A stretch of DNA of 64,000 nt, from assembly GCA_022842945.1 (NCBI GenBank), contig JALHOO010000001.1, forward strand, positions 221,830-285,829. The letters are read 5' to 3'. This document shows positions 326 to 57,196 of the stretch, piece by piece. How positions within the stretch are numbered: the stretch's first letter is position 1; every line of letters starts with the position of its first letter. Source of the stretch: Minisyncoccota bacterium (GTDB lineage: Bacteria; Patescibacteriota; Minisyncoccia; Phycocordibacterales; Phycocordibacteraceae). The notes beneath the pieces were generated by a model. That model did not search any database. It saw nothing but the letters and a program-made list of their open reading frames with translations, and had not been told where the DNA came from. A program made the translations under genes and the position numbers.

Positions 326-326
326 C

Positions 327-354
327 TGCTGGCAGTCTGGGACGATGTTGGAAC
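327..354 (+). repeat. A-type cassette repeat, copy A1 (tgctggcagtctgggacgatgttggaac)
   Basis: Exact consensus copy; direct repeat shared with 14 other loci in this window. Confidence 0.9.
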
Positions 355-358
355 CGCT

Positions 359-733: not shown

Positions 734-747
734 AGTGTACCAAGGAT

Positions 748-775
748 TGCTGGCTGTCTGGGACGATGTTGGAAC
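748..775 (+). repeat. A-type cassette repeat, copy A2 (tgctggcTgtctgggacgatgttggaac)
   Basis: One mismatch to consensus. Confidence 0.9.
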
Positions 776-983
776 CTATACTATCCACAACTCTCGAGCC
801 ACCTAATTGCTTGCCAGTATCTAAATGCTAGACTTTCCTTAAGAAAGAGCGGTGCTCCGCTCTTCTGCAAGGTCGGAGTTTTTGACACCGACGGCTTAAT
901 CTCGGTTGAGACGCTAGCACGACCTTGTGCCCTTTCTTTCGGTCCTGACTTCGGTCGGGGCCTTTTCCTATACTATCTACTGT

Positions 984-1006
984 TGCTGGCAGACCAGGTA
1001 TCGAAC
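984..1006 (+). repeat. B-type junction repeat, copy B1 (tgctggcagaccaggtatcgaac)
   Basis: Shares the left arm TTGCTGGCAG with the A repeat and has a different right arm. It lies 1 nt from the TAG stop of lexA (plus-strand CTA at 1008-1010). Confidence 0.85.
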
Positions 1007-1007
1007 C

Positions 1008-1706
1008 CTACCTCTGCGGCTCAAGCTCCGTATAATACTCAACCTTAATATCGTCCACCCACTCCGTTCCCGGAATGATAGAGAGCACTTTTCCAAATAC
1101 CCTCGAGTCCTCTTCCCGTACAACTATTGGATGATAGGTTCCGTACTTGTTCTCCGGGTTCAGATACACTACCTCGTCTACCCGTGAGAAGCGCTTAATA
1201 ACAGCCATGTTTCCAAGAATAGCCACCACACGGTCTCCGTTCTCTACCTGGTCTGTTACCTCAACGATAACGTAGTCGCCGCTATGAATACCTGCGTCCT
1301 GCATAGAGTCCCCAACCGCACGCACGGCAGCAATATTCGTGTAATCCTTACGTCCGCCAATAAGACTGCGGTCAACAACGATGTACTCCCCGAAGCTCTG
1401 CTCCGCGTACACGTCCATGGCGTCACACCCAGCCGACGCAATAACCGGCACCTGAATAAGGTCAGATGAGATCTGAGACTTAACCCCGTCAAGAATAGAA
1501 ATGCTTCGGTGCTGGAAGCGGTTGCGGGTAATGAGACCTTTTCTCTCAAGGCTCTCAAGACGCTGCGTAACACTGCGTAGAGACTTCAATTTAAGTGCTG
1601 TGCCGAGCTCCGTTATGGTTGGAGACTTTCCATTGGCATCCGTATGCTCCTGGATAACCGCTAAGGTTTCTTTCTGTGCTGGTGTGAGAGAAACGAGCTT
1701 GTTCAT
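1008..1706 (-). CDS. lexA: LexA-like transcriptional repressor (S24 peptidase) with C-terminal extension
   Basis: N-terminal winged HTH (ITELGTALKLKS...LERKGLI), catalytic AVGDSM serine motif and downstream Lys (VIKRF); 232 aa. Confidence 0.8.
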   Translation of the reverse strand: MNKLVSLTPAQKETLAVIQEHTDANGKSPTITELGTALKLKSLRSVTQRLESLERKGLITRNRFQHRSISILDGVKSQISSDLIQVPVIASAGCDAMDVYAEQSFGEYIVVDRSLIGGRKDYTNIAAVRAVGDSMQDAGIHSGDYVIVEVTDQVENGDRVVAILGNMAVIKRFSRVDEVVYLNPENKYGTYHPIVVREEDSRVFGKVLSIIPGTEWVDDIKVEYYTELEPQR

Positions 1707-7400: not shown

Positions 7401-7414
7401 ACATACCAAGAGTT

Positions 7415-7442
7415 TGCTGGCTGTCTGGGACGATGTTGGAAC
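7415..7442 (+). repeat. A-type cassette repeat, copy A4 (tgctggcTgtctgggacgatgttggaac)
   Basis: One mismatch; same variant as A2. Confidence 0.9.
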
Positions 7443-7463
7443 CATATTGCTCAGCTATTGACA

Positions 7464-7519: not shown

Positions 7520-7798
7520 ATGTCTGAGGCCCCTGAGGATAAAAAGGTGTTGGTCGGCGAGCGACTCATCCAAGCTCTGCTGTCCCCGGATTACTTTGAA
7601 TTAGTCCTCGACATCTTCAAGGACAGCACGAGCGTTGCGAGCATTGTCGACGTCTTCGACTGTACGGATTATTCCGATCTCGTCAAAGAGGTCTTCGGCA
7701 ATCTGACCAATGAAGAGGTCAAAGATCTTTTCCGGCCTGCACTTCCCGACGCGCTCCGCCGGTTCCTCGGCGCTCAAAGCGTCATCATCACCTGGTGA
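7520..7798 (+). CDS. hypothetical acidic small protein (cassette gene, array II)
   Basis: Own promoter, strong RBS and ATG; 92 aa; terminator downstream; flanked by repeats A4 and A5. Confidence 0.55.
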   Translation: MSEAPEDKKVLVGERLIQALLSPDYFELVLDIFKDSTSVASIVDVFDCTDYSDLVKEVFGNLTNEEVKDLFRPALPDALRRFLGAQSVIITW

Positions 7799-7802
7799 AC
7801 CC

Positions 7803-7860
7803 GTCCCTTCGTCAAACGAAAACCAAACCTTCGTTTCGGCGGAGGGGCGGTTTTCTTTTA
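7803..7860 (+). terminator. terminator hairpins with T-tract (AAACGAA..TTCGTTT and GGCGGAGGGGCGGTTTTCTTTT)
   Basis: Inverted repeats plus TTTTCTTTT immediately before repeat A5. Confidence 0.45.
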
Positions 7861-7869
7861 TCCAAATAT

Positions 7870-7897
7870 TGCTGGGGGTCTGGGACGATGTTGGAAC
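7870..7897 (+). repeat. A-type cassette repeat, copy A5 (tgctggGGgtctgggacgatgttggaac)
   Basis: CA to GG variant, also seen in A17. Confidence 0.9.
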
Positions 7898-7941
7898 CTT
7901 TATGCAATCTATGTTAGGTTCTGTCTAGAAGGAGTTTTGCA

Positions 7942-8289
7942 ATGGCCCACGACGAAAACAAGTATCTGCTGTGGTGTTTTCTATGGACCACCCACAGCTC
8001 TGACAGACCGGTTAGTGATATTGCGTGCTCGTTACATAGTTCTCTCGCAAAAGGCCAGGAGTTCTGTACGAATTACTGGCGCAACATGCCGGAACACGCC
8101 CCCTCGACCTATCTTGCGCCTACAGGTACTCGCTACCTGTGCCGAGTTGATGAAAAGACTCATAGACGCATCGTGGATAGCGATATTGGCCTCTGGTGCG
8201 TAACGGTTCCTCCCAGTACAACAGAAGCACTTGCCCTTCTTCCCCCTACTGACTTTATGTCACTCACAGAGGGCAGGATGCCGGCGTAA
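7942..8289 (+). CDS. hypothetical Cys/Trp-rich small protein (cassette gene, array II)
   Basis: AAGGAG RBS 7 nt upstream of the ATG; 115 aa; lies between A5 and B2. Confidence 0.5.
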   Translation: MAHDENKYLLWCFLWTTHSSDRPVSDIACSLHSSLAKGQEFCTNYWRNMPEHAPSTYLAPTGTRYLCRVDEKTHRRIVDSDIGLWCVTVPPSTTEALALLPPTDFMSLTEGRMPA

Positions 8290-8380
8290 TCTATGCTACC
8301 GATCTGATGAATCAAGACGGGATTCCCTGAGATAAGAAGCCGAAAACGAGAAATCGTGAGTAGGCTTTTCTCTTTTTTAT

Positions 8381-8403
8381 TGCTGGCAGACTAGGTATCG
8401 AAC
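8381..8403 (+). repeat. B-type junction repeat, copy B2 (tgctggcagactaggtatcgaac)
   Basis: Ends 2 nt before the TAG stop (plus-strand CTA at 8406-8408) of the M23 peptidase gene. Confidence 0.85.
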
Positions 8404-8405
8404 TT

Positions 8406-9773
8406 CTACAAATACGACATCGGATTCAAGTACGCACTCGGAGGAGCAACCGGCATAACCGCACCTCCTGCACTGCAGCCTGTTCCGGCCGGTTGTCCCT
8501 GCTGCTTGCGCCATGCGCCAAGGTCCATAATCTTTACACCCGTTGCAACATACACACTGAAGTGGAGGTGGGGTCCGGTTGCGTAGCCTGTCATACCTGA
8601 GAGGCCGATAGTTTGGCCGGTTGAGACACTCTGTCCTGCAGATACGGTAATACTTGAAAGGTGCGAGTATGAGGTAGCAAGCCCGTTCGGGTGCTTAATA
8701 AGTACCCACTTTCCGAAGGAGAAGCATCCTGGAACAGCGTCTGTGTTTCCGGTCCCCATAACCGTGCCTGAAAGTGCTGCCTGCACCGGGGTACCGCTTG
8801 GCATGCCGATATCGATAGCGTTGTGCCCGGAGCCGTTATAGATCTGTGAGTTGGCGGTTGCAAACGCCGTGTTGCCGAAATACTGCGTTATGCAGCGCGG
8901 GTTCCCCAGTGCCCCTGCCTTCCCTTCGCACGCTGCAGCAAAGCTTGGAGAATATGGCCACGCAAGCACGCCCGTTTGCACGGTAGGCACCTCAGCCTGC
9001 CCCACGGCCTTAAGACTGTTCTCAAGACTTGAGAGTGCCTGCTCGAAGAGTGCACGCTCTGCACGCTTCCGGGTTATGAGATCCTGGTACACGCTCTCCT
9101 GGTTCTTGGTCTGTGAGAGAAGCCTATCCTTCTCGCTCTTCTGCACATCAAGAGACTGCTTCTGGATACCAAGATCGCTCGCAAGGTTGGTAAGTTCGTT
9201 CTTCTTTGCGTCAACGTCCTGAAGCTGTGCACCAAGCGCATCCTTCGCTTGTGAGAGATTCGCTACGTTCGCACGAAGCGCCGTATTCAACGATGCTGCG
9301 TCGTCAATTGCCGTCCACGCTTCTGTGAGGTCGCCAGACGCAAACACCTGCTCAACGAGCGAGATCTCTCCGGCTTCTGCCATATTCCGGATAGATTCCT
9401 CAAGGGTACGCTTGTCGAGAGCGATAAGTTGCTCGGTGTCCTCAATGTTGTACGAGAGCTCGTTCAACTGAAGATTCGTAGAGGAAATCCTCGTCTGTGT
9501 AAGGTTAATCTGCGTGCTCGTCTGCTGGCGCGTTATATCAATAGACTTAATAGCGGTCTGCAGTGTCTGAGACTGTCCGTTCAAAATAAGGCGCTGGCGC
9601 TCTGCCTCTGCAATCTCGGCCTCCAAATCTTTAATCCTCTGTGCGTGCTCACTTATCTGGCTTTTGATCTCGTCTTCGCTCTGTGCAAAGGCTCCTTCCG
9701 GTACAACGGCACCTATACCGGCACACGCAACCAGAAGAACGAGAAGAAAGGATAAGGAACGCAAGGTCTGCAT
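8406..9773 (-). CDS. M23 family metallopeptidase with N-terminal coiled coil (EnvC/LytM-like murein hydrolase)
   Basis: Signal peptide, long coiled-coil region, and a C-terminal M23 domain with HxxxD (GHNAIDIG) and HLH (GPHLHFSV) motifs. Confidence 0.8.
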   Translation of the reverse strand: MQTLRSLSFLLVLLVACAGIGAVVPEGAFAQSEDEIKSQISEHAQRIKDLEAEIAEAERQRLILNGQSQTLQTAIKSIDITRQQTSTQINLTQTRISSTNLQLNELSYNIEDTEQLIALDKRTLEESIRNMAEAGEISLVEQVFASGDLTEAWTAIDDAASLNTALRANVANLSQAKDALGAQLQDVDAKKNELTNLASDLGIQKQSLDVQKSEKDRLLSQTKNQESVYQDLITRKRAERALFEQALSSLENSLKAVGQAEVPTVQTGVLAWPYSPSFAAACEGKAGALGNPRCITQYFGNTAFATANSQIYNGSGHNAIDIGMPSGTPVQAALSGTVMGTGNTDAVPGCFSFGKWVLIKHPNGLATSYSHLSSITVSAGQSVSTGQTIGLSGMTGYATGPHLHFSVYVATGVKIMDLGAWRKQQGQPAGTGCSAGGAVMPVAPPSAYLNPMSYL

Positions 9774-12396: not shown

Positions 12397-13506
12397 CTAC
12401 GCCAGCGTCTTCTTCTTGGATCGGTTGGCAGCCACGTTCAGAATAACGCCAACGGACGCCAAGGCAGCTAAAAGAGCCGTGCCTCCGTGCGACACAAAGG
12501 GCAGAGGCAATCCCGTTAAGGGCACAATACCTAGCATGGCGCCTATATTCATAAACGCGGATATGGTTATGAGGAGCGTAAGGCCCGTTGCGGCATACGT
12601 ACCAAATGCGCTCGCAGATTGGGCCGCAATGGTAAAGCCGCGCGTGGCAAACGCCGTAAAGAGAAGTACTAAGAGCACGGTACCTATGAACCCGAACTCT
12701 TCCCCGTACACCGCAAACACCGAGTCCCCTACGGGCTCTGGCAAGTAGTTGTACTTCTGTGCACTCTGTCCAAACCCGCGTCCAATCATCCCCCCTGAAC
12801 CAATAGCAATAAGGGACTGTTGAATCTGGTACCCGCTCCCCAGTCCGTCGCTCTCTGGAGAAATGAACGTCTTCACGCGCTCAAGCGCATACGGGCGGAG
12901 TGTAAGGGCAACCGCAATGAACACAATACCCGCCATAATAATGAGGCCAATATCGCGCAGACGGGCACCTGCAATGAAATACAGCGTCATAGCCGTAGCG
13001 CCAATAACCAGAATCGTACTGTTGTTTGGCTGAAGGGCGAGCAAGATAACCGGGAGACCAATAATCACGCCAAACGGTATAAGGCCCGTCTTGAAGTCTT
13101 TGATCTTCTCTTTAGCGCGCGCAAGGAACCACGCGAGCATCAAGATAACGGCAGGCTTCAGGAATTCAGCGGGCTGAATGGTAAACGGTCCAACATCAAT
13201 CCAGCGCGTAGCACCTCCTGCGTGCACTCCAAGTCCTGGGATGAATACCAAGGACGTAAGGAGAAGCGCGAATATATAGAACGGGATAACTGCGCGCTGT
13301 AGAAGCTGTTGTGGAGTGAATCGAATAACGAGGAGCGCTATAACGCCCGGAATGAGACCGAGCGCTAGCTGTGTAAGAGCAAGGCGACCAATAGACGCGC
13401 CTTCGCGTGCAAGAAGCCCTAATGCAGCTGATAGGAATATAGCCGCGCCGCCAACAACAAGGATGGCGACGATAAGAGCGAACACTCTATCTCCGGAAAG
13501 ACGCAT
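12397..13506 (-). CDS. ftsW: SEDS family peptidoglycan polymerase FtsW/RodA
   Basis: About 10 TM helices, conserved SEDS loops, adjacent to murG. Confidence 0.8.
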   Translation of the reverse strand: MRLSGDRVFALIVAILVVGGAAIFLSAALGLLAREGASIGRLALTQLALGLIPGVIALLVIRFTPQQLLQRAVIPFYIFALLLTSLVFIPGLGVHAGGATRWIDVGPFTIQPAEFLKPAVILMLAWFLARAKEKIKDFKTGLIPFGVIIGLPVILLALQPNNSTILVIGATAMTLYFIAGARLRDIGLIIMAGIVFIAVALTLRPYALERVKTFISPESDGLGSGYQIQQSLIAIGSGGMIGRGFGQSAQKYNYLPEPVGDSVFAVYGEEFGFIGTVLLVLLFTAFATRGFTIAAQSASAFGTYAATGLTLLITISAFMNIGAMLGIVPLTGLPLPFVSHGGTALLAALASVGVILNVAANRSKKKTLA

Positions 13507-13550
13507 GACCTCCCTATTCTAACGCATGGGTGGTGTGTTAAGGCGTGTAT

Positions 13551-13578
13551 AGCTGAATGTTTGGGAGGATGTTGGAAC
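13551..13578 (+). repeat. degenerate A-type repeat, copy A7 (gctgaatgtttgggaggatgttggaac)
   Basis: Right arm TGGGAgGATGTTGGAAC is conserved and the left arm has diverged. It marks the ftsW-proximal end of array III. Confidence 0.6.
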
Positions 13579-13634
13579 CCTGCACTTAGCCTGATATAGT
13601 GCCGCCAGACGTAACCCTCAACCAGAGAGATCCA

Positions 13635-13853: not shown

Positions 13854-14198
13854 CTACACCCTCCTCCACTCGCCGGTCTCTTCATTAAGTATTGCAACTC
13901 GATTCCCTCCAACCGGCATGCCGTTCTCGTAATAGATAACGCTGATGGCCGTCTCAGTTGAAACGTTCTGCCTACCGTGATTACCTTTTCTCATGTACTG
14001 ATATTCGATTGTCTCACCTCCGTTCTCTCCAGTACGCTCTACTTCTCGCAGATACACCCCTTGCTCGTCTGAGAGCTCCCGACCAAGAGTATACCCTTCT
14101 ATATACTGAGAGAGTGCATCGAGTACTTCCTGGCTTGAGAGGATTGTTTCTCTCTTGTTCTCTATGCTATGCGGTTGAGACCCGGGGAATTTTTCCAT
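13854..14198 (-). CDS. hypothetical protein (cassette gene, array III)
   Basis: 114-aa ORF. A bidirectional hairpin lies between it and the RHH ORF, and repeat A8 lies just upstream of its start. Confidence 0.45.
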   Translation of the reverse strand: MEKFPGSQPHSIENKRETILSSQEVLDALSQYIEGYTLGRELSDEQGVYLREVERTGENGGETIEYQYMRKGNHGRQNVSTETAISVIYYENGMPVGGNRVAILNEETGEWRRV

Positions 14199-14222
14199 AG
14201 ACTGATATTAGCATCTGGCTAT

Positions 14223-14250
14223 TACTGGCAGTCTGGGACGACGTTGGAGC
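14223..14250 (+). repeat. A-type cassette repeat, copy A8 (tActggcagtctgggacgAcgttggaGc)
   Basis: Three mismatches. Confidence 0.8.
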
Positions 14251-14299
14251 CAAACTCACTTAATGATACTGTCCTCAAGGATCCAAGAGGAGAATTGCC

Positions 14300-14562: not shown

Positions 14563-14567
14563 ACCGT

Positions 14568-14595
14568 TGCTGGCAGTCTGGAACGACGTTGGAAC
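14568..14595 (+). repeat. A-type cassette repeat, copy A9 (tgctggcagtctggAacgAcgttggaac)
   Basis: Two mismatches. Confidence 0.9.
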
Positions 14596-14682
14596 TTTTT
14601 TAGCAGACGATTACTTGACCCAGGTTCTAACTAATGGCTAGATGTAACCAGGAAGCATAGTAATTGAAACGGGAGAATTTTA

Positions 14683-15100: not shown

Positions 15101-15105
15101 TATAT

Positions 15106-15133
15106 TGCTGGCAGTCTGGAACGATGTTGGAAC
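15106..15133 (+). repeat. A-type cassette repeat, copy A10 (tgctggcagtctggAacgatgttggaac)
   Basis: One mismatch. Confidence 0.9.
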
Positions 15134-15184
15134 CATGATAATAAAATCCCGCCTTCTTAGGGGCGGGACTTCATGGAGCCTAAT

Positions 15185-15517: not shown

Positions 15518-15612
15518 ATGTTGATACCCTCTGTGAAAAGCAAAAAAGAACGATACCGCATAGTACCCTGCAAATCAGATTTAGCAACGTAATCTAATTG
15601 TTGTAGAAGTTA

Positions 15613-15635
15613 TTCTGGCAGACCAGGTATTGAAC
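15613..15635 (+). repeat. B-type junction repeat, copy B3 (ttctggcagaccaggtattgaac)
   Basis: Abuts or overlaps by 1 nt the TAG stop (plus-strand CTA at 15635-15637) of mraY. Confidence 0.8.
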
Positions 15636-16696
15636 TATTTCAACAACGCCAACGCCAACCCAAAGATACCCGCGATAATCGTAATAACCCAGTAGCGCAT
15701 CGTAACCTTGTACGCAGGCCAGCCAATAGCTTCAAAGTGATGGTGGATAGGGGCAATACGGAAGATCTTCTTCTTCAGTACCTTCTTGCAGAACACCTGG
15801 ATCATACTCGTAGCAACCGTAACGGTAAGAGGAAGTGCGATTATGGGAAGTACGGATACCCCAACCCCGTCTCCAAGCACGTCTGTCGAGAACGCCGTTA
15901 TAGCGAGCGCAACCGTAAGGGCCATAGTGCCCGTCTCAGACAAATAGAAGCGTGCGGGCGGAATATTAAACCAAAGGAACGCGAAGAGAGATCCTGAGAC
16001 ACAGGCAGCAAACGCTGCAAGTGTCGTCTGTCCCTGTGCAAACGCAATGCCTGCATACGTCATGAAAATAATGGCGAACACGCCTCCTGCAAGCCCATCA
16101 ATGCCGTCTATAACGCCGCCGGCATAGAGCGCGAGCGTAACCAACATAAAGAACCCAATGAAGAAGACCCCAAGCTCAACAGGTCCTACAAACGGCACGC
16201 CAACCGTAGACACATCAAGCTTCTCGTAAAACCACCAGCCCGCAAACGCACCAATAGCGCCAACAACAAGAAGACGCCAGCGAAGACGCAGTCCTCCAGA
16301 AGATCTCGTAACCTCAAAGATGTCGTCTATAAGGCCAACGGCAGCTCCCGCAGCAAGCGCAAACAACGGAAGCCACGTCTGACTCCTACTTATGAAATCA
16401 AAGGAGGTAAACGGTTCTCCAAAGAAAAGCGCCAGTACCCAAAGACCAAGTGCGGTTATGAGTGTCGACGCCCACACAATAATGCCGCCCATGCGCGGCG
16501 TGGAGACCTCCCTTTCTTTGTGAAGCTCGTCAAAGAGTGGGGTGCCGTTCTTGTCCCCCATGCTGTTTCCCTTCCCGCCAACCTTCTTCCATGCACGGAA
16601 CTTGAAGAGGTAGTGGGTCAGTATTGGGGCAAGCGCAATACCAATAACGAATGACGCAACGGACGGGATTAGGACACGTGCCGCATCGATAATCAT
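15635..16696 (-). CDS. mraY: phospho-N-acetylmuramoyl-pentapeptide transferase MraY
   Basis: Polytopic membrane protein with conserved MraY loops (DDxxD-like GLIDDIFE, HHHFE motif PIHHHFEAIGW). Confidence 0.85.
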   Translation of the reverse strand: MIIDAARVLIPSVASFVIGIALAPILTHYLFKFRAWKKVGGKGNSMGDKNGTPLFDELHKEREVSTPRMGGIIVWASTLITALGLWVLALFFGEPFTSFDFISRSQTWLPLFALAAGAAVGLIDDIFEVTRSSGGLRLRWRLLVVGAIGAFAGWWFYEKLDVSTVGVPFVGPVELGVFFIGFFMLVTLALYAGGVIDGIDGLAGGVFAIIFMTYAGIAFAQGQTTLAAFAACVSGSLFAFLWFNIPPARFYLSETGTMALTVALAITAFSTDVLGDGVGVSVLPIIALPLTVTVATSMIQVFCKKVLKKKIFRIAPIHHHFEAIGWPAYKVTMRYWVITIIAGIFGLALALLK

Positions 16697-25103: not shown

Positions 25104-25273
25104 TAGCCTCCCATCTCAAAGTTCGAGACAAGCACGGACAAGACCGTGCAGGTTGACGACGGATGTCGTTCCAGCACTTTTATATAACAATATTAGGCAC
25201 TATGTCAAGTCTCTAACCCCACCCAGACCAAAGCACCCTATAGGGTGCTTTGGTTCCAAAACTCTTCTTAGGG

Positions 25274-25356
25274 TGCGCCGGGGAGGATTCGAACCTCCGA
25301 AGCCGTGAGGCGACAGGTTTACAGCCTGCATGTTTTGACCACTTACCTACCGACGC
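25274..25356 (-). tRNA. tRNA-Tyr (anticodon GTA), class II with long variable arm
   Basis: Acceptor stem GCGTCGG/CCGGCGC, anticodon loop CTGTAAA and T-arm GGAGG-TTCGAAT-CCTCC; CCA not fully encoded. Confidence 0.75.
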
Positions 25357-50044: not shown

Positions 50045-50045
50045 T

Positions 50046-50073
50046 TGCTGGCAGCCTGGGACGACGTTGGAAC
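50046..50073 (+). repeat. A-type cassette repeat, copy A12 (tgctggcagCctgggacgAcgttggaac)
   Basis: Two mismatches. Confidence 0.9.
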
Positions 50074-50075
50074 CC

Positions 50076-50417
50076 TTACCCTTCAACTTCGTACTGTTCA
50101 GGGTTCCATGCCGGGGTGCACGCAATGATGAGAACGAGCCTTCCGTCCCACCACACCCGCTCTCCTTTCTCAATTAGAACCACGTCCCCTTTCTTGAGAG
50201 GAATCGTTTCATTATTGACAGTTACGTTTCCTTCCCCTTCTTGGACATATACCAACTCTGAAACGGCTTTATTAATCGCACTTCCTTCTAAGGGGTACCG
50301 ACCGGTTATCTCTATGCGTGCCAGATTAATGTCAGGCTCCCCTGTCTGGTATTCAAAGGCTATGCAGGAGGATGCGTTCTCGAATCTTTTTGCATCAGTT
50401 CCGCATACGATTTTCAT
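50076..50417 (-). CDS. cupin domain protein (cassette gene, array IV)
   Basis: Cupin beta-barrel motifs; 113 aa; bounded by repeats A12 and A13. Confidence 0.5.
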   Translation of the reverse strand: MKIVCGTDAKRFENASSCIAFEYQTGEPDINLARIEITGRYPLEGSAINKAVSELVYVQEGEGNVTVNNETIPLKKGDVVLIEKGERVWWDGRLVLIIACTPAWNPEQYEVEG

Positions 50418-50436
50418 CTACTTATTCTAGCAATAT

Positions 50437-50464
50437 TGCTGGCAGTCTGGGACGATGTTGGAAC
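50437..50464 (+). repeat. A-type cassette repeat, copy A13 (exact consensus)
   Basis: tgctggcagtctgggacgatgttggaac. Confidence 0.9.
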
Positions 50465-50513
50465 TCATATACAAGAGTGTTATGGTTTTCTCCAGACCAG
50501 AACGGAGAACGAC

Positions 50514-50654: not shown

Positions 50655-50712
50655 ATGCTTCACAAACCAGTTGCTTACCCCCGATGGAAACGTCGGGGGC
50701 TTTCTTAAAAAT

Positions 50713-50738
50713 CCTGCTGTCTGGAACAATGTTGGAAC
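50713..50738 (+). repeat. A-type repeat variant, copy A14 (cctgctgtctggaacaatgttggaac)
   Basis: Belongs to the AACAATG subfamily together with A15 and A16; 2-nt shorter left arm. Confidence 0.75.
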
Positions 50739-50780
50739 TTCCATTAGAAATGGCCGGCACCTTGCGAGTGCCGGCCAAGA

Positions 50781-50978: not shown

Positions 50979-51040
50979 TCTTAGGAACTAACCTCAACAA
51001 TCTAAGGTTTCTTCTTAAATACTGTGCTAGGTATGGAGAT

Positions 51041-51068
51041 TGCCAGCTGTCTGGAACAATGTTGGAAC
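51041..51068 (+). repeat. A-type repeat variant, copy A15 (tgccagctgtctggaacaatgttggaac)
   Basis: CCAGCTG and AACAATG variant. Confidence 0.85.
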
Positions 51069-51069
51069 C

Positions 51070-51573: not shown

Positions 51574-51606
51574 GCTTTAAATTGTATCAGTTGTGTATAC
51601 CTTTAC

Positions 51607-51634
51607 TGCCAGCTGTCTGGAACAATGTTGGAAT
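51607..51634 (+). repeat. A-type repeat variant, copy A16 (tgccagctgtctggaacaatgttggaaT)
   Basis: Same subfamily as A15. Confidence 0.85.
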
Positions 51635-51683
51635 CCTCCAGGCACAGTGCTATTATCGGCCTAGGCAGAACAAGGAGCCTCAA

Positions 51684-51917: not shown

Positions 51918-51963
51918 GAATAGGGGCAGTCGGACGAATCTTGTCCGACTGCCCTTTCTTAAT

Positions 51964-51991
51964 TGCTGGGGGTCTGGGACGATGTTGGAAC
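51964..51991 (+). repeat. A-type cassette repeat, copy A17 (tgctggGGgtctgggacgatgttggaac)
   Basis: Same GG variant as A5 in array II. Confidence 0.9.
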
Positions 51992-52360
51992 CGTCTTGAC
52001 ACTCCACAGACAGGTGTATACTTAACAGTGGAAGTAAGGGAGGACATCAAACGAGACTCTCGGCCCAACAGCCGGGACCAGGCCATCCTTCGAGAAGTCA
52101 CGCTAAATGCTTCGGCAGCCATAGAGGGTTCCAGCCCCGTAAGCGGTACAACTTCAAAGAAGGTCTGAGTAAGCTTGTGCAAGTGCGCACATGTACAAGC
52201 CCAACACGGGTGGTTCTGCTTAAGCCGTTAGGCGTCAGCAAGTAGAGTTGGGTTTCGACCCAATGAACCGGTTCTCACTTTTGAGCTGCCATCCAAGCCT
52301 AAGCCCTTTCTTCCAACTTTTCTTTCAGGCCACCTCTCGGGGTGGTCTTTCTCTTTAGAT

Positions 52361-52388
52361 TGCTGGCAGTCTGGGACGACGTTAGAAC
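52361..52388 (+). repeat. A-type cassette repeat, copy A18 (tgctggcagtctgggacgAcgttAgaac)
   Basis: Two mismatches; preceded by a terminator GGCCACCtctcgGGGTGGTC plus TTTCTCTTT. Confidence 0.85.
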
Positions 52389-52392
52389 TTTA

Positions 52393-52698
52393 CTACGCCT
52401 TAACGATGGTTTTCTTAACAGACTCAACAAATAGTCTAAAAGCAGGACGGTCTTCTTTCTCGTATACAACCTTAACTCCAAGCAGGTGTTGCCTAGGGCA
52501 AGAAAGATCTTTTCTCGCGATAGAAACCTTCGGGTCCCGTATTCTGTCCAAGTACAGCCTTCTTAATGCGCCTGGACCATCTTTCTGGTACCGGCAGATT
52601 TCCACGCCGCACTTCTCGCATGTAATAGCGAGTAAACGAGAATATCCCCCGCGGCTTCTGCGGAATTTATCGTTCTTAAACTTCTCGCTCATACGCAA
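52393..52698 (-). CDS. Cys-rich zinc-ribbon-like small protein (cassette gene, array IV)
   Basis: CEKCGVEIC ... CPRQH, a four-Cys arrangement; basic; 101 aa. Confidence 0.4.
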   Translation of the reverse strand: MRMSEKFKNDKFRRSRGGYSRLLAITCEKCGVEICRYQKDGPGALRRLYLDRIRDPKVSIARKDLSCPRQHLLGVKVVYEKEDRPAFRLFVESVKKTIVKA

Positions 52699-52716
52699 AG
52701 GTTAGCACAGCGATAT

Positions 52717-52739
52717 TGCTGGCAGACTAGGGACCGAAC
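52717..52739 (+). repeat. B-type junction repeat, copy B4 (tgctggcagactagggaccgaac)
   Basis: Directly abuts the TAG stop (plus-strand CTA at 52740-52742) of alaS. Confidence 0.8.
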
Positions 52740-54656
52740 CTACACCAACACCGCCTTGATACGGCGCACTCCAGACGCAACCGCCTCTTCCTTCTGTATC
52801 TTGAACCTGCGGTCCTCAGCGTGGATCTCGCTGGTATTCGCTACGTGCGGGCCTCCACAGAACTCAAGAGAGAACGCGTTTGGAATATCAGGATTCTCTT
52901 CAGTTGCGTGTATAGGGCCAACTGAGTACACCGACACCATGTCTGGATACTTAACCCCGAACTCCATCTCTGCACCAAGCTTCTCTGCTTCCTCGCGAGG
53001 CATAACAGAACGCGTAACCGGAAGATCCTGATATATGATGTCGTTCACAATCTTTTCAACCTCAGCCTTCTGCTCGTCCGTCATCTTTCCAGGCGACGCA
53101 AAGTCTATACGAAGACGTTCAGAGGTTATGTTGGAGCCTCTCTGCTTAACTTCTGGCCCCAAGACCATTTGCAAAGCCTTAAGAAGAATGTGGTGTGTGG
53201 TGTGGTAGCGGACGGTTTGTTCTGCATGGTCGGCAAGACCTCCTGCAAAGCGCTGGGCACCCCCTGCACGGGATGTCTCCTGGTGTTTCTTCATAAGCTC
53301 CATAACCGCCGTAAGATCAATTTCAATCTCACGCTCCTTTGCAATCTCTTCTGTAAGCTCAATAGGAAAGCCATAGGTAGTGAAGAGGGTAAACACGTCT
53401 TCCGGTGTAATAGCCCCTTTAGAAACGAGCTTCTCAAGCTCTCGAAGTCCTGTGGTGAGAGTCTTGCGGAACTTCTCTTCCTCCTTCGCTATCTCCTCAC
53501 GTATCTTGTCCGCGTTTTGTGCTACATGCGGATAGTGATCGGCATACACGTCGCCGTATCCCTTCGCTACGTCAGCGAGTACTGCGTCATGAATACCCAG
53601 GCGATCTGATTCGCGAATGGCGCGGCGTAGAAGCCTGCGAAGCACATACCCTGCCTCAGAGTTAGAAGGCACGATACCTTCAGCGAGCATGAAAGAAGCC
53701 GCGCGCATGTGGTCAAGGATGATGCGGAACGAGCGCATGGTTGCCTCGTCTGAGTGATACTTCTTTCCTGAGCGCTCCTCAATAACGGCGCGAGCAGCGT
53801 CAAAGATATCAAGCTCAAAGATGTCTGGACCAACCGTTGCCATGGTTATGCGCTCAAGTCCCCCGCCAAAATCAATATTCTTCTTCGGAAGCTCTACAAA
53901 CGAACCATCCTCCTGCTTCATGAACTGCATGAACACCGAGTTTCCAATCTCTACAAAGCGTCCACAGTCGCAGTTAGGGTGGCAATGCGCACCCCACTTC
54001 GGATCGTGCTCTGTACCAAAGTCATAGAAGATCTCTGAGTCCGGTCCCCCTGGCTCCCCTGCAGGCATGTTGCTTGGTACGCCCGAACGGCTCCACCAGT
54101 TCTTCTTCGCGTCGTATGCAAAGATGCGGTCGTTTGGTCCCATACCCTTTTCGTACCCCGCCTCCTCGCTCCCTATGTTTGAGAACTCTGCAGAGACGCC
54201 GACCTCGCCAAAAAGACGCTTCCACAGTTCAATAGCCTCCGTATCTAGAGGAATACCTGCCTCCGTGTCTTCTGCAAACACCGTTACATAGAGCCTGTTC
54301 GGGTCAATACCAAAGCCGGTTTCCTTGCTTGTGAGGAACTCAAATATCCACGGAAGCTGTTCCTGTTTGAAATAGTCGCCAAAGGACCAGTTCCCAAGCA
54401 TCTCGAAGAAGGTGGTGTGACGGTTGTCACCCACTTCTTCAATGTCTCCCGCTCGAAACGAGAGCTGCGCATTAACCACACGCTTACCTTCTGGGTGGTC
54501 CTCACCGAGAAAATACGGCAAGAGTGGCTGCATGCCGCTTGAGGTGAAGAGGGTAGTTGGATCGTTGCCGGGGACTATGGGTGCTGACGGGATAATCACG
54601 TGCCCACGTGCCTCATAGAAAGCCAAGAACCTGCGGCGTACTTCAGATACGGTCAT
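52740..54656 (-). CDS. alaS: alanyl-tRNA synthetase (short form, 638 aa)
   Basis: N-terminal class II AlaRS catalytic core (FLAFYEARGHVIIPSAPIVPGNDPTTLFTSSGMQ) and editing-domain HxxxH (TTHHILLKALQ). It lacks the long C-terminal extension of typical bacterial AlaRS. Confidence 0.8.
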   Translation of the reverse strand: MTVSEVRRRFLAFYEARGHVIIPSAPIVPGNDPTTLFTSSGMQPLLPYFLGEDHPEGKRVVNAQLSFRAGDIEEVGDNRHTTFFEMLGNWSFGDYFKQEQLPWIFEFLTSKETGFGIDPNRLYVTVFAEDTEAGIPLDTEAIELWKRLFGEVGVSAEFSNIGSEEAGYEKGMGPNDRIFAYDAKKNWWSRSGVPSNMPAGEPGGPDSEIFYDFGTEHDPKWGAHCHPNCDCGRFVEIGNSVFMQFMKQEDGSFVELPKKNIDFGGGLERITMATVGPDIFELDIFDAARAVIEERSGKKYHSDEATMRSFRIILDHMRAASFMLAEGIVPSNSEAGYVLRRLLRRAIRESDRLGIHDAVLADVAKGYGDVYADHYPHVAQNADKIREEIAKEEEKFRKTLTTGLRELEKLVSKGAITPEDVFTLFTTYGFPIELTEEIAKEREIEIDLTAVMELMKKHQETSRAGGAQRFAGGLADHAEQTVRYHTTHHILLKALQMVLGPEVKQRGSNITSERLRIDFASPGKMTDEQKAEVEKIVNDIIYQDLPVTRSVMPREEAEKLGAEMEFGVKYPDMVSVYSVGPIHATEENPDIPNAFSLEFCGGPHVANTSEIHAEDRRFKIQKEEAVASGVRRIKAVLV

Positions 54657-56521: not shown

Positions 56522-57196
56522 CTACATCCACTCAATACCCTTCTTCTCCTTCATCTCGAGATACTCATTCGTCTTGCTAAACGGCCTCGAGCCAAAGAAC
56601 CCGCTGTGTGCTGAAAACGGTGAAGGATGCGGAGACTCAATAACCAGGTGTTTTGTACGATCAATATGTATCCCTTTCGTACGGGCGTAGGTGCCCCACA
56701 ATATGAATACAAGGTTCTCCCGCTCCTCTGAAAGGACTTTCATAACCGCGTCTGTAAACTGTTCCCACCCTTTCTTCTGGTGCGAGCCAGGAGAGCCACT
56801 ACGCACCGTAAGGGTGGCATTTAGAAGAAGCACCCCTTGTTGTGCCCAGCGGGTAAGGTCCCCGTCCCTATGCTCAAGGGGTTCTCCAAGATCGCTCTCT
56901 AATTCCTTGTAGATATTGCGTAGGGAAGGCGGAAGGGTTGTTCCAGACTCAACAGAGAACGAAAGACCTACAGCCTGACCTGCTCCATGGTATGGATCCT
57001 GTCCAAGAATAACTACCTTAACTGCATCAAAGGGTGTGAGCTCAAATGCACGGAATATGTTCTTTGACTCCGGGTACACTGTAGACTCTGCATACTCCTT
57101 TTCAACAAAGGCTGCGAGCTCTGCAAAGTATGGTCTGCCTAACTCCCCTGCGAGCTTTGCCTTCCAGGATGGTTCAAGTGCAGTATCCATACGCAC
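56522..57196 (-). CDS. ung: uracil-DNA glycosylase (family 1)
   Basis: Water-activating loop GQDPYH and HPSPFSAH motif. Confidence 0.85.
   Translation of the reverse strand: MRMDTALEPSWKAKLAGELGRPYFAELAAFVEKEYAESTVYPESKNIFRAFELTPFDAVKVVILGQDPYHGAGQAVGLSFSVESGTTLPPSLRNIYKELESDLGEPLEHRDGDLTRWAQQGVLLLNATLTVRSGSPGSHQKKGWEQFTDAVMKVLSEERENLVFILWGTYARTKGIHIDRTKHLVIESPHPSPFSAHSGFFGSRPFSKTNEYLEMKEKKGIEWM

Follow-up and report, generated by a model that had tools for sequence, protein, structure and literature searches.

The window analyzed here, a 64,000-nt stretch of the genome of a Minisyncoccota bacterium within the Patescibacteriota (GenBank assembly GCA_022842945.1, contig JALHOO010000001.1, positions 221,830 to 285,829), carries four arrays of short repeats that begin at the 3' ends of lexA, an M23 peptidase gene, mraY, and alaS. 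Two kinds of repeat, A and B, delimit these arrays and are the subject of this report, together with the recombination system to which they probably belong. The 15 A copies are spaced 270 to 670 bp apart, and each B copy forms the gene-proximal end of one array (Table 1). The statement of a first-pass annotation that B stands at the core-gene end of every array therefore holds for all four arrays in the window.

A search of the window for the B pattern TTGCTGGCAGACYAGGKAYYGAAC with at most two mismatches returned exactly four matches, all on the plus strand, and none in shuffled sequence. The four B copies reported earlier are thus real, but each starts one base before the position originally given (983 instead of 984 for the lexA copy). 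All four host genes end in TAG, and the distance from the stop codon to the GTTC of B ranges from −1 to +2 nt, as tight an abutment as had been described. The mraY copy has a degenerate left arm (ATTCTGGCAG).

TAG is the main stop codon among the 56 long open reading frames (ORFs) of the window (37 TAG, 15 TAA, and 4 TGA), which is unusual for bacteria. Four TAG stops at B sites consequently mean little, and we rejected TAG as a specific target in the window on these grounds. Genome compaction was also rejected as a sufficient cause of the abutment, since same-strand spacings of 3 nt or less make up only about one-quarter of those in the window.

Table 1. Sites, cassettes, and host genes of the four arrays, in window coordinates
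Feature	Position	Strand	Remarks
B site 1 (attB-type, tRNA-Gln 3'-part mimic)	983..1006	-	+1 nt from lexA stop; gene sense ...AGG TAG G GTTCGATACCTGGTCTGCCAGCAA
B site 2	8380..8403	-	+2 nt from M23 peptidase stop; gene sense ...TTG TAG AA GTTCGATACCTAGTCTGCCAGCAA
B site 3	15612..15635	-	-1 nt, overlaps mraY TAG; core degenerate (CCAGAAT); gene sense ...AAA TAG TTCAATACCTGGTCTGCCAGAAT
B site 4	52716..52739	-	0 nt, abuts alaS TAG; gene sense ...GTG TAG GTTCGGTCCCTAGTCTGCCAGCAA
A site (attP-type), array 1	326..355	-	
A site, array 1	747..776	-	
A site, array 2, distal	7414..7443	-	
A site, array 2	7869..7898	-	Variable dinucleotide CC; flanks 7798-7929 conserved in >10 loci
A site, array 3, terminal	13550..13579	-	Degenerate; 43 nt from ftsW start
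A site, array 3	14222..14251	-	
A site, array 3	14567..14596	-	
A site, array 3	15105..15134	-	
A site, array 4, distal	50045..50074	-	
A site, array 4	50436..50465	-	
A site, array 4	50710..50739	-	Degenerate core
A site, array 4	51040..51069	-	Core CTGGCAA
A site, array 4	51606..51635	-	Core CTGGCAG
A site, array 4	51963..51992	-	Variable dinucleotide CC
A site, array 4	52360..52389	-	Distal boundary of alaS-adjoining cassette
Cassette 1 of array 4	52390..52715	-	Small CxxC protein 52393-52698, minus strand; 88% identical to L181 cassette between two A sites
Cupin-domain cassette gene, array 4	50076..50417	-	Pfam Cupin_2; TAA stop 1 nt from A site
Cassette gene, 114 aa, array 3	13854..14198	-	Homologues in arrays behind other host genes (L010, L159, L198, L242)
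Cassette gene, 115 aa, array 2	7942..8289	+	Antisense to host gene; homologues in L010, L159, L224 arrays
lexA, array 1 host	1008..1706	-	Pfam LexA_DNA_bind, Peptidase_S24
M23 peptidase gene, array 2 host	8406..9773	-	Pfam Peptidase_M23
mraY, array 3 host	15635..16696	-	Pfam Glycos_transf_4
ftsW	12397..13506		Parted from mraY by array 3; Pfam FTSW_RODA_SPOVE
alaS, 638 aa, short form, array 4 host	52740..54656	-	Pfam tRNA-synt_2c, tRNA_SAD

Each window cassette contains a single small ORF, which may lie on either strand; the plus-strand ORFs have terminators of their own. Pfam identified only a cupin, a weak colicin-immunity-like match, and a ribbon-helix-helix protein among them; the cassette genes encountered in the analysis as a whole include those for a cupin, a NUDIX hydrolase, a ribbon-helix-helix protein, and an immunity-like protein. 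Homologous cassettes recur behind different host genes in different genomes.

Two cassette regions and one host gene deserve separate mention. The flanks of the A site at 7869 to 7898 (7798 to 7929) are conserved at 78 to 93% identity in more than 10 unrelated loci, most strongly at TTTATGCAATCTATGTTAGGTTCTGTCTAGAAGGAG, just upstream of the plus-strand cassette ORF at 7942 to 8289; to judge from its sequence, this looks like an outward promoter and ribosome-binding module shared by a subfamily of A sites. The lexA-adjoining cassette (778 to 982) has no ORF of at least 50 aa inside it, and the plus-strand ORFs at 728 to 1048 and 927 to 1187 cross its flanking repeats. It has a promoter-like TTGCTT-N16-TAGACT and a clear terminator (cggtcctgacttcggtcggggcctttt), and Rfam in E-value mode over positions 200 to 1100 gave no match to it; it may be a small RNA or micropeptide gene. 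The alanyl-tRNA synthetase (AlaRS) encoded at 52740 to 54656 ends directly after the RRIKAVLV motif of its second additional domain, as it does in six related genomes, and we take it to be a short form without the long C-terminal extension of full-length bacterial AlaRS.

The B site and the 3' part of tRNA-Gln

In the sense of the host gene, B reads (TAG)GTTCGATMCCTRGTCTGCCAGCAA and represents the T-arm, the 3' acceptor strand, and the discriminator of tRNA-Gln, corresponding to about positions 50 to 75 of the tRNA gene and including the discriminator G and CA(A). The geometry is exact, with the T-stem (C)TAGG, the T-loop TTCGATN, the T-stem CCTAG, the acceptor 3' strand TCTGCCA, the discriminator G, and CA(A), and the alaS B site stands in the same register as the tRNA T-stem (TAGGTTCG). 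The core that B shares with A, CCAGCAA, consists of acceptor positions 70 to 72, the discriminator, and the first trailer bases.

Using ARAGORN, we identified tRNA-Gln genes whose 3' parts match B and which are followed by A arrays (L158, L162, L203, L220, L238, L247, L264, and L282; L numbers refer to loci outside the window). As in islands that target tRNA genes, integration thus lies at the 3' end of a tRNA gene in at least eight related loci. The tRNA-Gln genes with B-like matches in metagenome loci have the anticodons UUG and CUG, and in one example the tRNA-Gln 3' end, TGGGAGATCGTCTAATGGTAGGACAGCGGCCTTTGAAGCCGTGAATCTAGGTTCGATCCCTAGTCTCCCAGC, is followed by AATAAA and A-repeat arrays. Because the B arm is the 3' part of tRNA-Gln, we regard the tRNA gene as the natural target.

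Seven of the 62 distinct B sites lie in tRNA-Gln genes, 36 lie directly behind an ORF of at least 100 aa, and 19 lie elsewhere, a distribution that does not agree with the earlier proposal that insertion is aimed at the 3' ends of essential genes. An A site is found within 2.6 kb of 54 of the 62. Two-thirds of the ORF-abutting sites (24 of 36) are in the exact tRNA register, with TAG followed by GTTCG, and the abutted stop codons comprise 33 TAG, 3 TAA, and no TGA; this enrichment of TAG across loci probably comes from the match to the tRNA T-stem. ARAGORN found no tRNA at any B copy behind a protein gene, and these copies are therefore fragments rather than genes. Within a single genome (Ga0181349; L220, L172, and L175), B copies track the acceptor variant of that genome's own tRNA-Gln. 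If B follows the acceptor variant of its host, the tRNA-Gln of the window organism is expected to start with TGGCAGA and to end with TCTGCCAG.

Two tRNA-Gln loci show further rearrangements. At L158 (7773 to 7945), behind the tRNA-Gln gene lies another, partial copy extending back to the anticodon stem, which suggests that another integrase, crossing over in the anticodon loop, shares this tRNA. At L181 (8 to 125), a tRNA-Gln gene with a divergent T-arm (GGATCGTACCC) is followed 17 nt on by a canonical B fragment bearing a recombinase element; this may be a tRNA-Gln variant that evades the recombinase, the former 3' end having been displaced.

The exactness of the T-arm once the stop codon is counted (TAGG TTCGATN CCTA), the prevalence of the tRNA register directly past the stop codon, and the enrichment of TAG would all suit a role of B in RNA, as a tRNA-like 3' element (comparable to the t-elements of plant mitochondria) that ends or stabilizes the host mRNA or parts the cassette transcripts, recombination being secondary or absent. 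However, B lacks a 5' acceptor strand and does not fold significantly, the TAGG strand is missing from copies that lie away from genes, and Rfam, run at gathering thresholds over the whole window and in E-value mode over positions 200 to 1100, returned only tRNA-Tyr and a chance match to a long noncoding RNA. Further, B sites are occupied by the recombinase elements described below, and an RNA-level role leaves the A sites unaccounted for. We consider it improbable that this role is the primary one, although B may have it as a second function beside recombination.

The first-pass annotation had interpreted the right arm of B plus the stop codon as a preexisting chromosomal attachment site (attB) belonging to the 3' flanks of essential genes, at which the mobile element aims. 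In its favor, B is always gene-proximal in its array, the stop-abutting sites are the largest class, and B occupies orthologous positions (behind alaS, M23 peptidase, pilC, and ychF-like genes) in distant genomes: the M23 peptidase gene is followed by an orthologous B in L003, L019, L172, L217, and L268, and alaS is followed by B in L004, L015, L029, L175, and L260, though not in L265. However, array-free orthologues, the comparison that the annotation itself had proposed, have no B-like sequence past the stop codon. Without an array, mraY reads ...AAATAG GCGG ATG(ftsW) in L172 and ...AAATAG AT ATG in L217, and unrelated sequence without B follows alaS in L265, pilC in L166 and L184, and a 220-aa gene in the window (56522 to 57196), L029, and L265. 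As no empty attB was found behind any of these four genes and the proteins keep the same C-termini whether or not B is present, B arrived with the array and is not ancestral. In addition, nothing is conserved upstream of the TAG, and the B arm is that of tRNA-Gln, present in tRNA genes and away from genes. A preexisting target at protein genes is therefore very unlikely. On this comparison of orthologues, the B copies behind protein genes are best seen as secondary landing pads that arrived together with the arrays, not as ancestral chromosomal sequence. Their spacing to the stop codon shifts by a few bases between orthologues.

At L019 (1635 to 2192), mraY and ftsW are separated by an insert of 560 bp that contains a terminator and, on the reverse strand, an ORF of 121 aa, but in which neither an A nor a B site is recognizable; either an array has decayed completely here or the insertion was an independent one.

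Recombinase elements and the crossover site

At L247 and L181, a 486- to 502-aa ORF encoding a large serine recombinase (LSR) lies against the tRNA-Gln gene or B site, and a rolling-circle replication (Rep) gene adjoins it. The protein combines Resolvase, Recombinase, and Zn_ribbon_recom domains (Pfam PF00239, PF07508, and PF13408), as do those of the P0019 and P0014 loci. The site-adjoining LSRs of L247, L181, L282, and L284 are 486 to 504 aa long, and the N-terminal sequence reads MKYVLYCRKSTDTEDKQ; the resolvase catalytic domain, with its nucleophilic Ser and Y-x-R-x-S-T motif, is thus found in related loci together with the recombinase and zinc-ribbon domains that define LSR systems. The family is large (1,791 matches at E ≤ 1e-20), and its closest solved structure is the SPbeta integrase. 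At L282, the LSR gene runs into a tRNA-Gln(CUG) gene followed by an array of seven or eight A sites. At L284, on a contig without an A site, it runs into the B copy that abuts the pilC stop codon, and therefore the decoy B sites behind protein genes are real integration sites.

The P0019 element was recovered from eight independent assemblies as exact circular permutations of one 5,696-bp circle (L274), whose only A site lies at the 3' end of the LSR gene and which also bears genes for Rep, a 526-aa protein, and a Shedu-type nuclease (SduA_C). Integrated LSR elements, in turn, sit between tRNA-Gln or B and an A site (L247, L181, and L282). Since the circle carries a single A and the LSR adjoins B or tRNA-Gln, we assign A to the attP type and B or tRNA-Gln to the attB type, so that related loci show attP on the circle, attB in the chromosome, and hybrid sites at the flanks. 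At L283 (1192 to 2199), a reverse transcriptase gene (RVT_1) adjoins the recombinase gene, and defense-type cargo is thus found on recombinase elements.

The final codons of the LSR gene are an antisense translation of the neighboring site, and three classes of tail occur among 120 homologues (P0001 to P0120). At B, the protein ends in ...(M/L)L-x-D, with the stop codon supplied by CTAG of B; at a tRNA gene, it ends in ...MLPDLDSNQD...SYH, because the ORF reads through the tRNA with its CTTGG T-stem and gains 16 residues; and at A, in the circular form, it ends in ...LLAVWDDVGT.... As the 3' end of the gene overlaps the site (L247, 1590 to 1650; L181, 96 to 125), the C-terminal tail differs among the circular, B-integrated, and tRNA-integrated forms, a change that, from its sequence, may be a regulatory switch.

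Scanning species-representative genomes with the B pattern yielded 34 loci, about 23 of which are in Parcubacteria/Paceibacterota or Saccharibacteria. The patescibacterial copies carry the same sequence behind orthologous genes (alaS, M23 peptidase, pilC, ychF-like, and others), and with mismatches allowed nearly every B has at least one A site 165 to 1,550 nt downstream. A metagenome scan with the A pattern added 116 loci. B matches outside Patescibacteria (Prevotella, Deltaproteobacteria, and others) were set aside as chance-like, as they lie in unrelated sequence and several recur in homologous sequence, and so were three identical B matches in an unrelated context in viral contigs. The A-arm 20-mer GTTCCAACRTCGTCCCAGAC is found in more than 120 viral contigs (L035 to L154; IMG/VR), always within one conserved coding region of high-GC phage contigs (...VWDDVGTFDGRPWRG... 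/ ...VWDDVGTFDGRPWRGAVD...) and with no core sequence after it, and we judged this to be a coincidence amplified by a well-sampled gene. The peptide VWDDVGT encoded in that viral region is also the A-arm-encoded end of the circular-form recombinase, which we likewise treated as coincidence.

Sequence logos of 74 B copies and of 363 A copies from related genomes give, in gene sense, GGTTC-N5-CTAGTC-NN-CCAGCAA for B and GGTTC-N10-CCAGAC-NN-CCAGCAA for A, the latter reading in full (A)GGTTCCAACATCGTCCCAGAC-NN-CCAGCAA(T), with conservation from (A/T)AGGTTC through CCAGCAA(T). A and B had been said to share only a 10-nt left arm, which needs correction at both ends: the terminal GAACC, displaced by 5 nt, and the inner GWCTRG are also common to both, and the shared left arm itself shrinks to TTGCTGG (CCAGCAA in gene sense), the only part invariant across the 363 A copies, because the next two bases vary (TG in 121, AG in 73, CC in 66, AC in 32, and others). 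GGTTC, the outer motif, stands 5 bp nearer the core in B than in A, which matches the 5-bp shift of the zinc-ribbon-domain motif between attP and attB published for serine integrases (PMC3783163).

The position of the exchange can be read from a cassette found in both contexts. The alaS-adjoining cassette of array 4 (52390 to 52715) and a cassette of L181 are 88% identical over about 380 bp, and the copy joined to B in the window is joined to A in L181. Their homology begins just past the B arm (window) or the A arm (L181) and ends after CCAGCAAT of the next A; it breaks at CTGCYAGCAAT on both sides, to which the exchange is therefore mapped. The variable dinucleotide NN would fit the geometry of the Listeria (LI) integrase as the crossover dinucleotide, but it was rejected, as NN differs between B and A of one array (in L004, L009, L012, and L241, B holds TG where all A copies of the same array have CC). 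At attL, the junction left by integration, the acceptor bases 3' of NN in L247 and L282 are still those specific to the tRNA. Because B keeps its own NN and the tRNA acceptor bases persist at attL, the crossover falls inside CAGCA(A).

Recombination at a shared core, as the first-pass annotation had envisaged, is thus upheld by the cassette joined to B in one genome and to A in another, the 5.7-kb circle with one A, and the LSR elements lying between B or tRNA-Gln and A. Of its view of A and B as two forms of one recombination site, we retain the hybrid sites around a shared crossover core, B as the chromosomal junction, and A between tandem units, whereas the supposedly chromosomal arm is a tRNA-Gln mimic and not a target that was there beforehand.

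We put at about three in four the probability that an LSR family widespread in Patescibacteria uses A and B as its two types of attachment site. Several points weigh against this assignment. The window has no tRNA-Gln gene, its sole tRNA being tRNA-Tyr (25272 to 25356), and no LSR gene was found among the window ORFs scanned, namely, those beside the arrays and on the plus strand, so that the link between LSR and window arrays rests on the identity of site sequences and on related genomes. Canonical LSR sites are quasi-palindromic. Here, the right arm is no inverted repeat of the left inner arm, and the small-cassette logos hold no information to the right of CCAGCAA(T) that would make up a second half-site. 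Further, GGTTC would fill the zinc-ribbon-domain positions of the LI integrase only if NN were the center of the site; since NN differs between B and A of one array, either the half-site is longer in this family or the geometry argument is only approximate. Finally, the excision and integration of small cassettes are inferred from sequence comparison, and an LSR exchange, which swaps only the DNA to the right of the core, cannot by itself set a B arm beside a new gene.

A proposed model of cassette capture at B sites

We hypothesize that B near stop codons is, most likely, a docking site at which the LSR stacks small mobile gene cassettes. The core CAGCA(A) would be the place where a circular cassette with an A site recombines with B. 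Since the sequence to its right is exchangeable rather than conserved, the proximal product would again be B-like and the distal product A-like. As this leaves B available for reuse, B could take up cassette after cassette, with the newest beside the host gene, giving arrays of the form B-c1-A-c2-A, and recombination of B with A in cis would excise a cassette as a circle with an A site. Lacking a recombinase gene of their own, the small cassettes would rely on an LSR acting in trans, supplied by a 4- to 7-kb element that also bears the rolling-circle Rep gene.

Growth next to B agrees with two observations, namely, the recurrence of cassettes behind different hosts and the closeness to the consensus of the A sites nearest B. 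Mean mismatches to the A consensus are 1.85 at rank 0 from B, 2.65 at rank 1, and 5.6 at rank 2, and terminal A sites, in which the inner arm and core are lost, differ in consensus match from nonterminal ones (p = 0.036). A TA crossover at terminal A sites as the footprint of the founding insertion was discarded, as the bases past TA mismatch the expected remainder of the stop codon.

The spread of B arms to new genes might be explained by movement of the B-arm...A-arm unit as a whole. At L202 (1016 to 1100), a 45-nt stretch past the stop codon of a ychF-like gene ends in an A-arm remnant (CGTCCCAAAT) fused to a B arm, with no core between them; this single case would fit such movement of a whole B...A unit. 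The fullest version of the model, to which we give somewhat less than an even chance, is a genome-wide, integron-like LSR cassette system in which tRNA-Gln decoys sit in register on the stop codons of essential genes, several per genome, and themselves spread. The decoy would be regenerated at each insertion, allowing unlimited iterative capture.

Among known systems, the staphylococcal cassette chromosome (SCC, including SCCmec), mobilized by Ccr, comes close. It uses an LSR and inserts at the 3' end of rlmH/orfX, at one locus per genome, and the target, a portion of the rlmH coding sequence, also occurs in empty strains. The two systems have in common the type of enzyme, the location at the 3' end of a conserved housekeeping gene, tandem composite islands whose units are parted by direct repeats of the integration site, a gene-side half-site that alone is well conserved, and nonautonomous units mobilized in trans. 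They differ in that empty orthologues of mraY, alaS, pilC, and the 220-aa gene here lack B, and in that the window has at least four loci in 64 kb, single-gene units of 0.3 to 0.7 kb, and a site that mimics tRNA-Gln.

Phage integrases such as those of A118 (LI), SPbeta, phiC31, and Bxb1 share with this LSR family the domain architecture, attP on the circle with attB in the chromosome, the outer motif 5 bp nearer the center in attB (PMC3783163), and the SPbeta integrase as best match in PDB. Unlike in the phage systems, the right half-site is unconserved here and the products appear to stay substrates, permitting repeated insertion; the integrase gene extends at its 3' end into attP, so that integration alters the protein C terminus; and what is carried is not a phage but a small plasmid-like element or one gene.

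Since tRNA genes are common integration hotspots, the arrays could also have been built by tyrosine recombinase elements at tRNA-Gln, with A and B as partial-tRNA scars and the LSR elements as unrelated coresidents, in the manner of the tycheposons of Prochlorococcus, of which 910 of 937 carry a hallmark tyrosine recombinase (bioRxiv 10.1101/2020.12.28.424599). The second partial tRNA-Gln copy at L158 would fit this idea, and tycheposons resemble the arrays in integrating at tRNA genes, in newcomers that push older elements inward, in partial tRNA copies and degenerate remnants, in replication genes on the elements, and in the gain of flexible genes by streamlined genomes (bioRxiv 10.1101/2020.12.28.424599). 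However, tycheposon islands stand at real tRNA genes and are separated by partial tRNAs, whereas here tRNA mimics stand on the stop codons of protein genes and the separator is a distinct attP-type repeat, A, which is not a partial tRNA. The enzyme, moreover, is of the serine type: the LSR frame enters the core in all three contexts, the circular LSR element has exactly one A, and no tyrosine recombinase recurs among 140 neighboring ORF families (single occurrences would not be listed). We regard a tyrosine recombinase origin as hardly tenable.

Least credible of all is a true integron, in which a tyrosine integrase would join folded, single-stranded attC-type A sites with an attI-type B: the small, mostly single-gene cassettes of accessory or undefined function, some common to several arrays, the many cassette-borne sites, and the apparently polar growth beside one special proximal site are integron-like, but attC sites are imperfect palindromes of 57 to 141 bp that act as single-stranded hairpins, whereas A and B are unstructured, double-stranded sites of about 30 nt (DNA fold z-scores of 0.04 to 1.26 on both strands), the recombinase physically tied to them is a serine recombinase, there are many arrays per genome (four in 64 kb) instead of a single one with IntI and attI, cassettes lie in both orientations with their own terminators, and the same 140 families and the window ORFs scanned, including those beside the arrays, contain no recurrent tyrosine recombinase and no integrase, respectively.

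The system is best described as serine recombinase integration that behaves like a multilocus integron, and we found no previous description of it in the literature, including by a search with the repeat sequence itself. If our interpretation is correct, it provides a serine integrase whose products are still substrates, hence a reusable site, unlike the one-way phage integrases employed in genome engineering. A compact landing pad that can be reused, about 27 bp long and paired with a donor site of 32 bp, might be of practical interest. To our knowledge, few mobile elements have been described in the tiny genomes of Patescibacteria. Four arrays within 64 kb, and the occurrence of these sites in Saccharibacteria as well as Paceibacterota, suggest that a sizable share of the accessory genes of these bacteria is stored and traded through one system, which would represent a previously unrecognized route by which ultrasmall genomes hold and exchange accessory genes.

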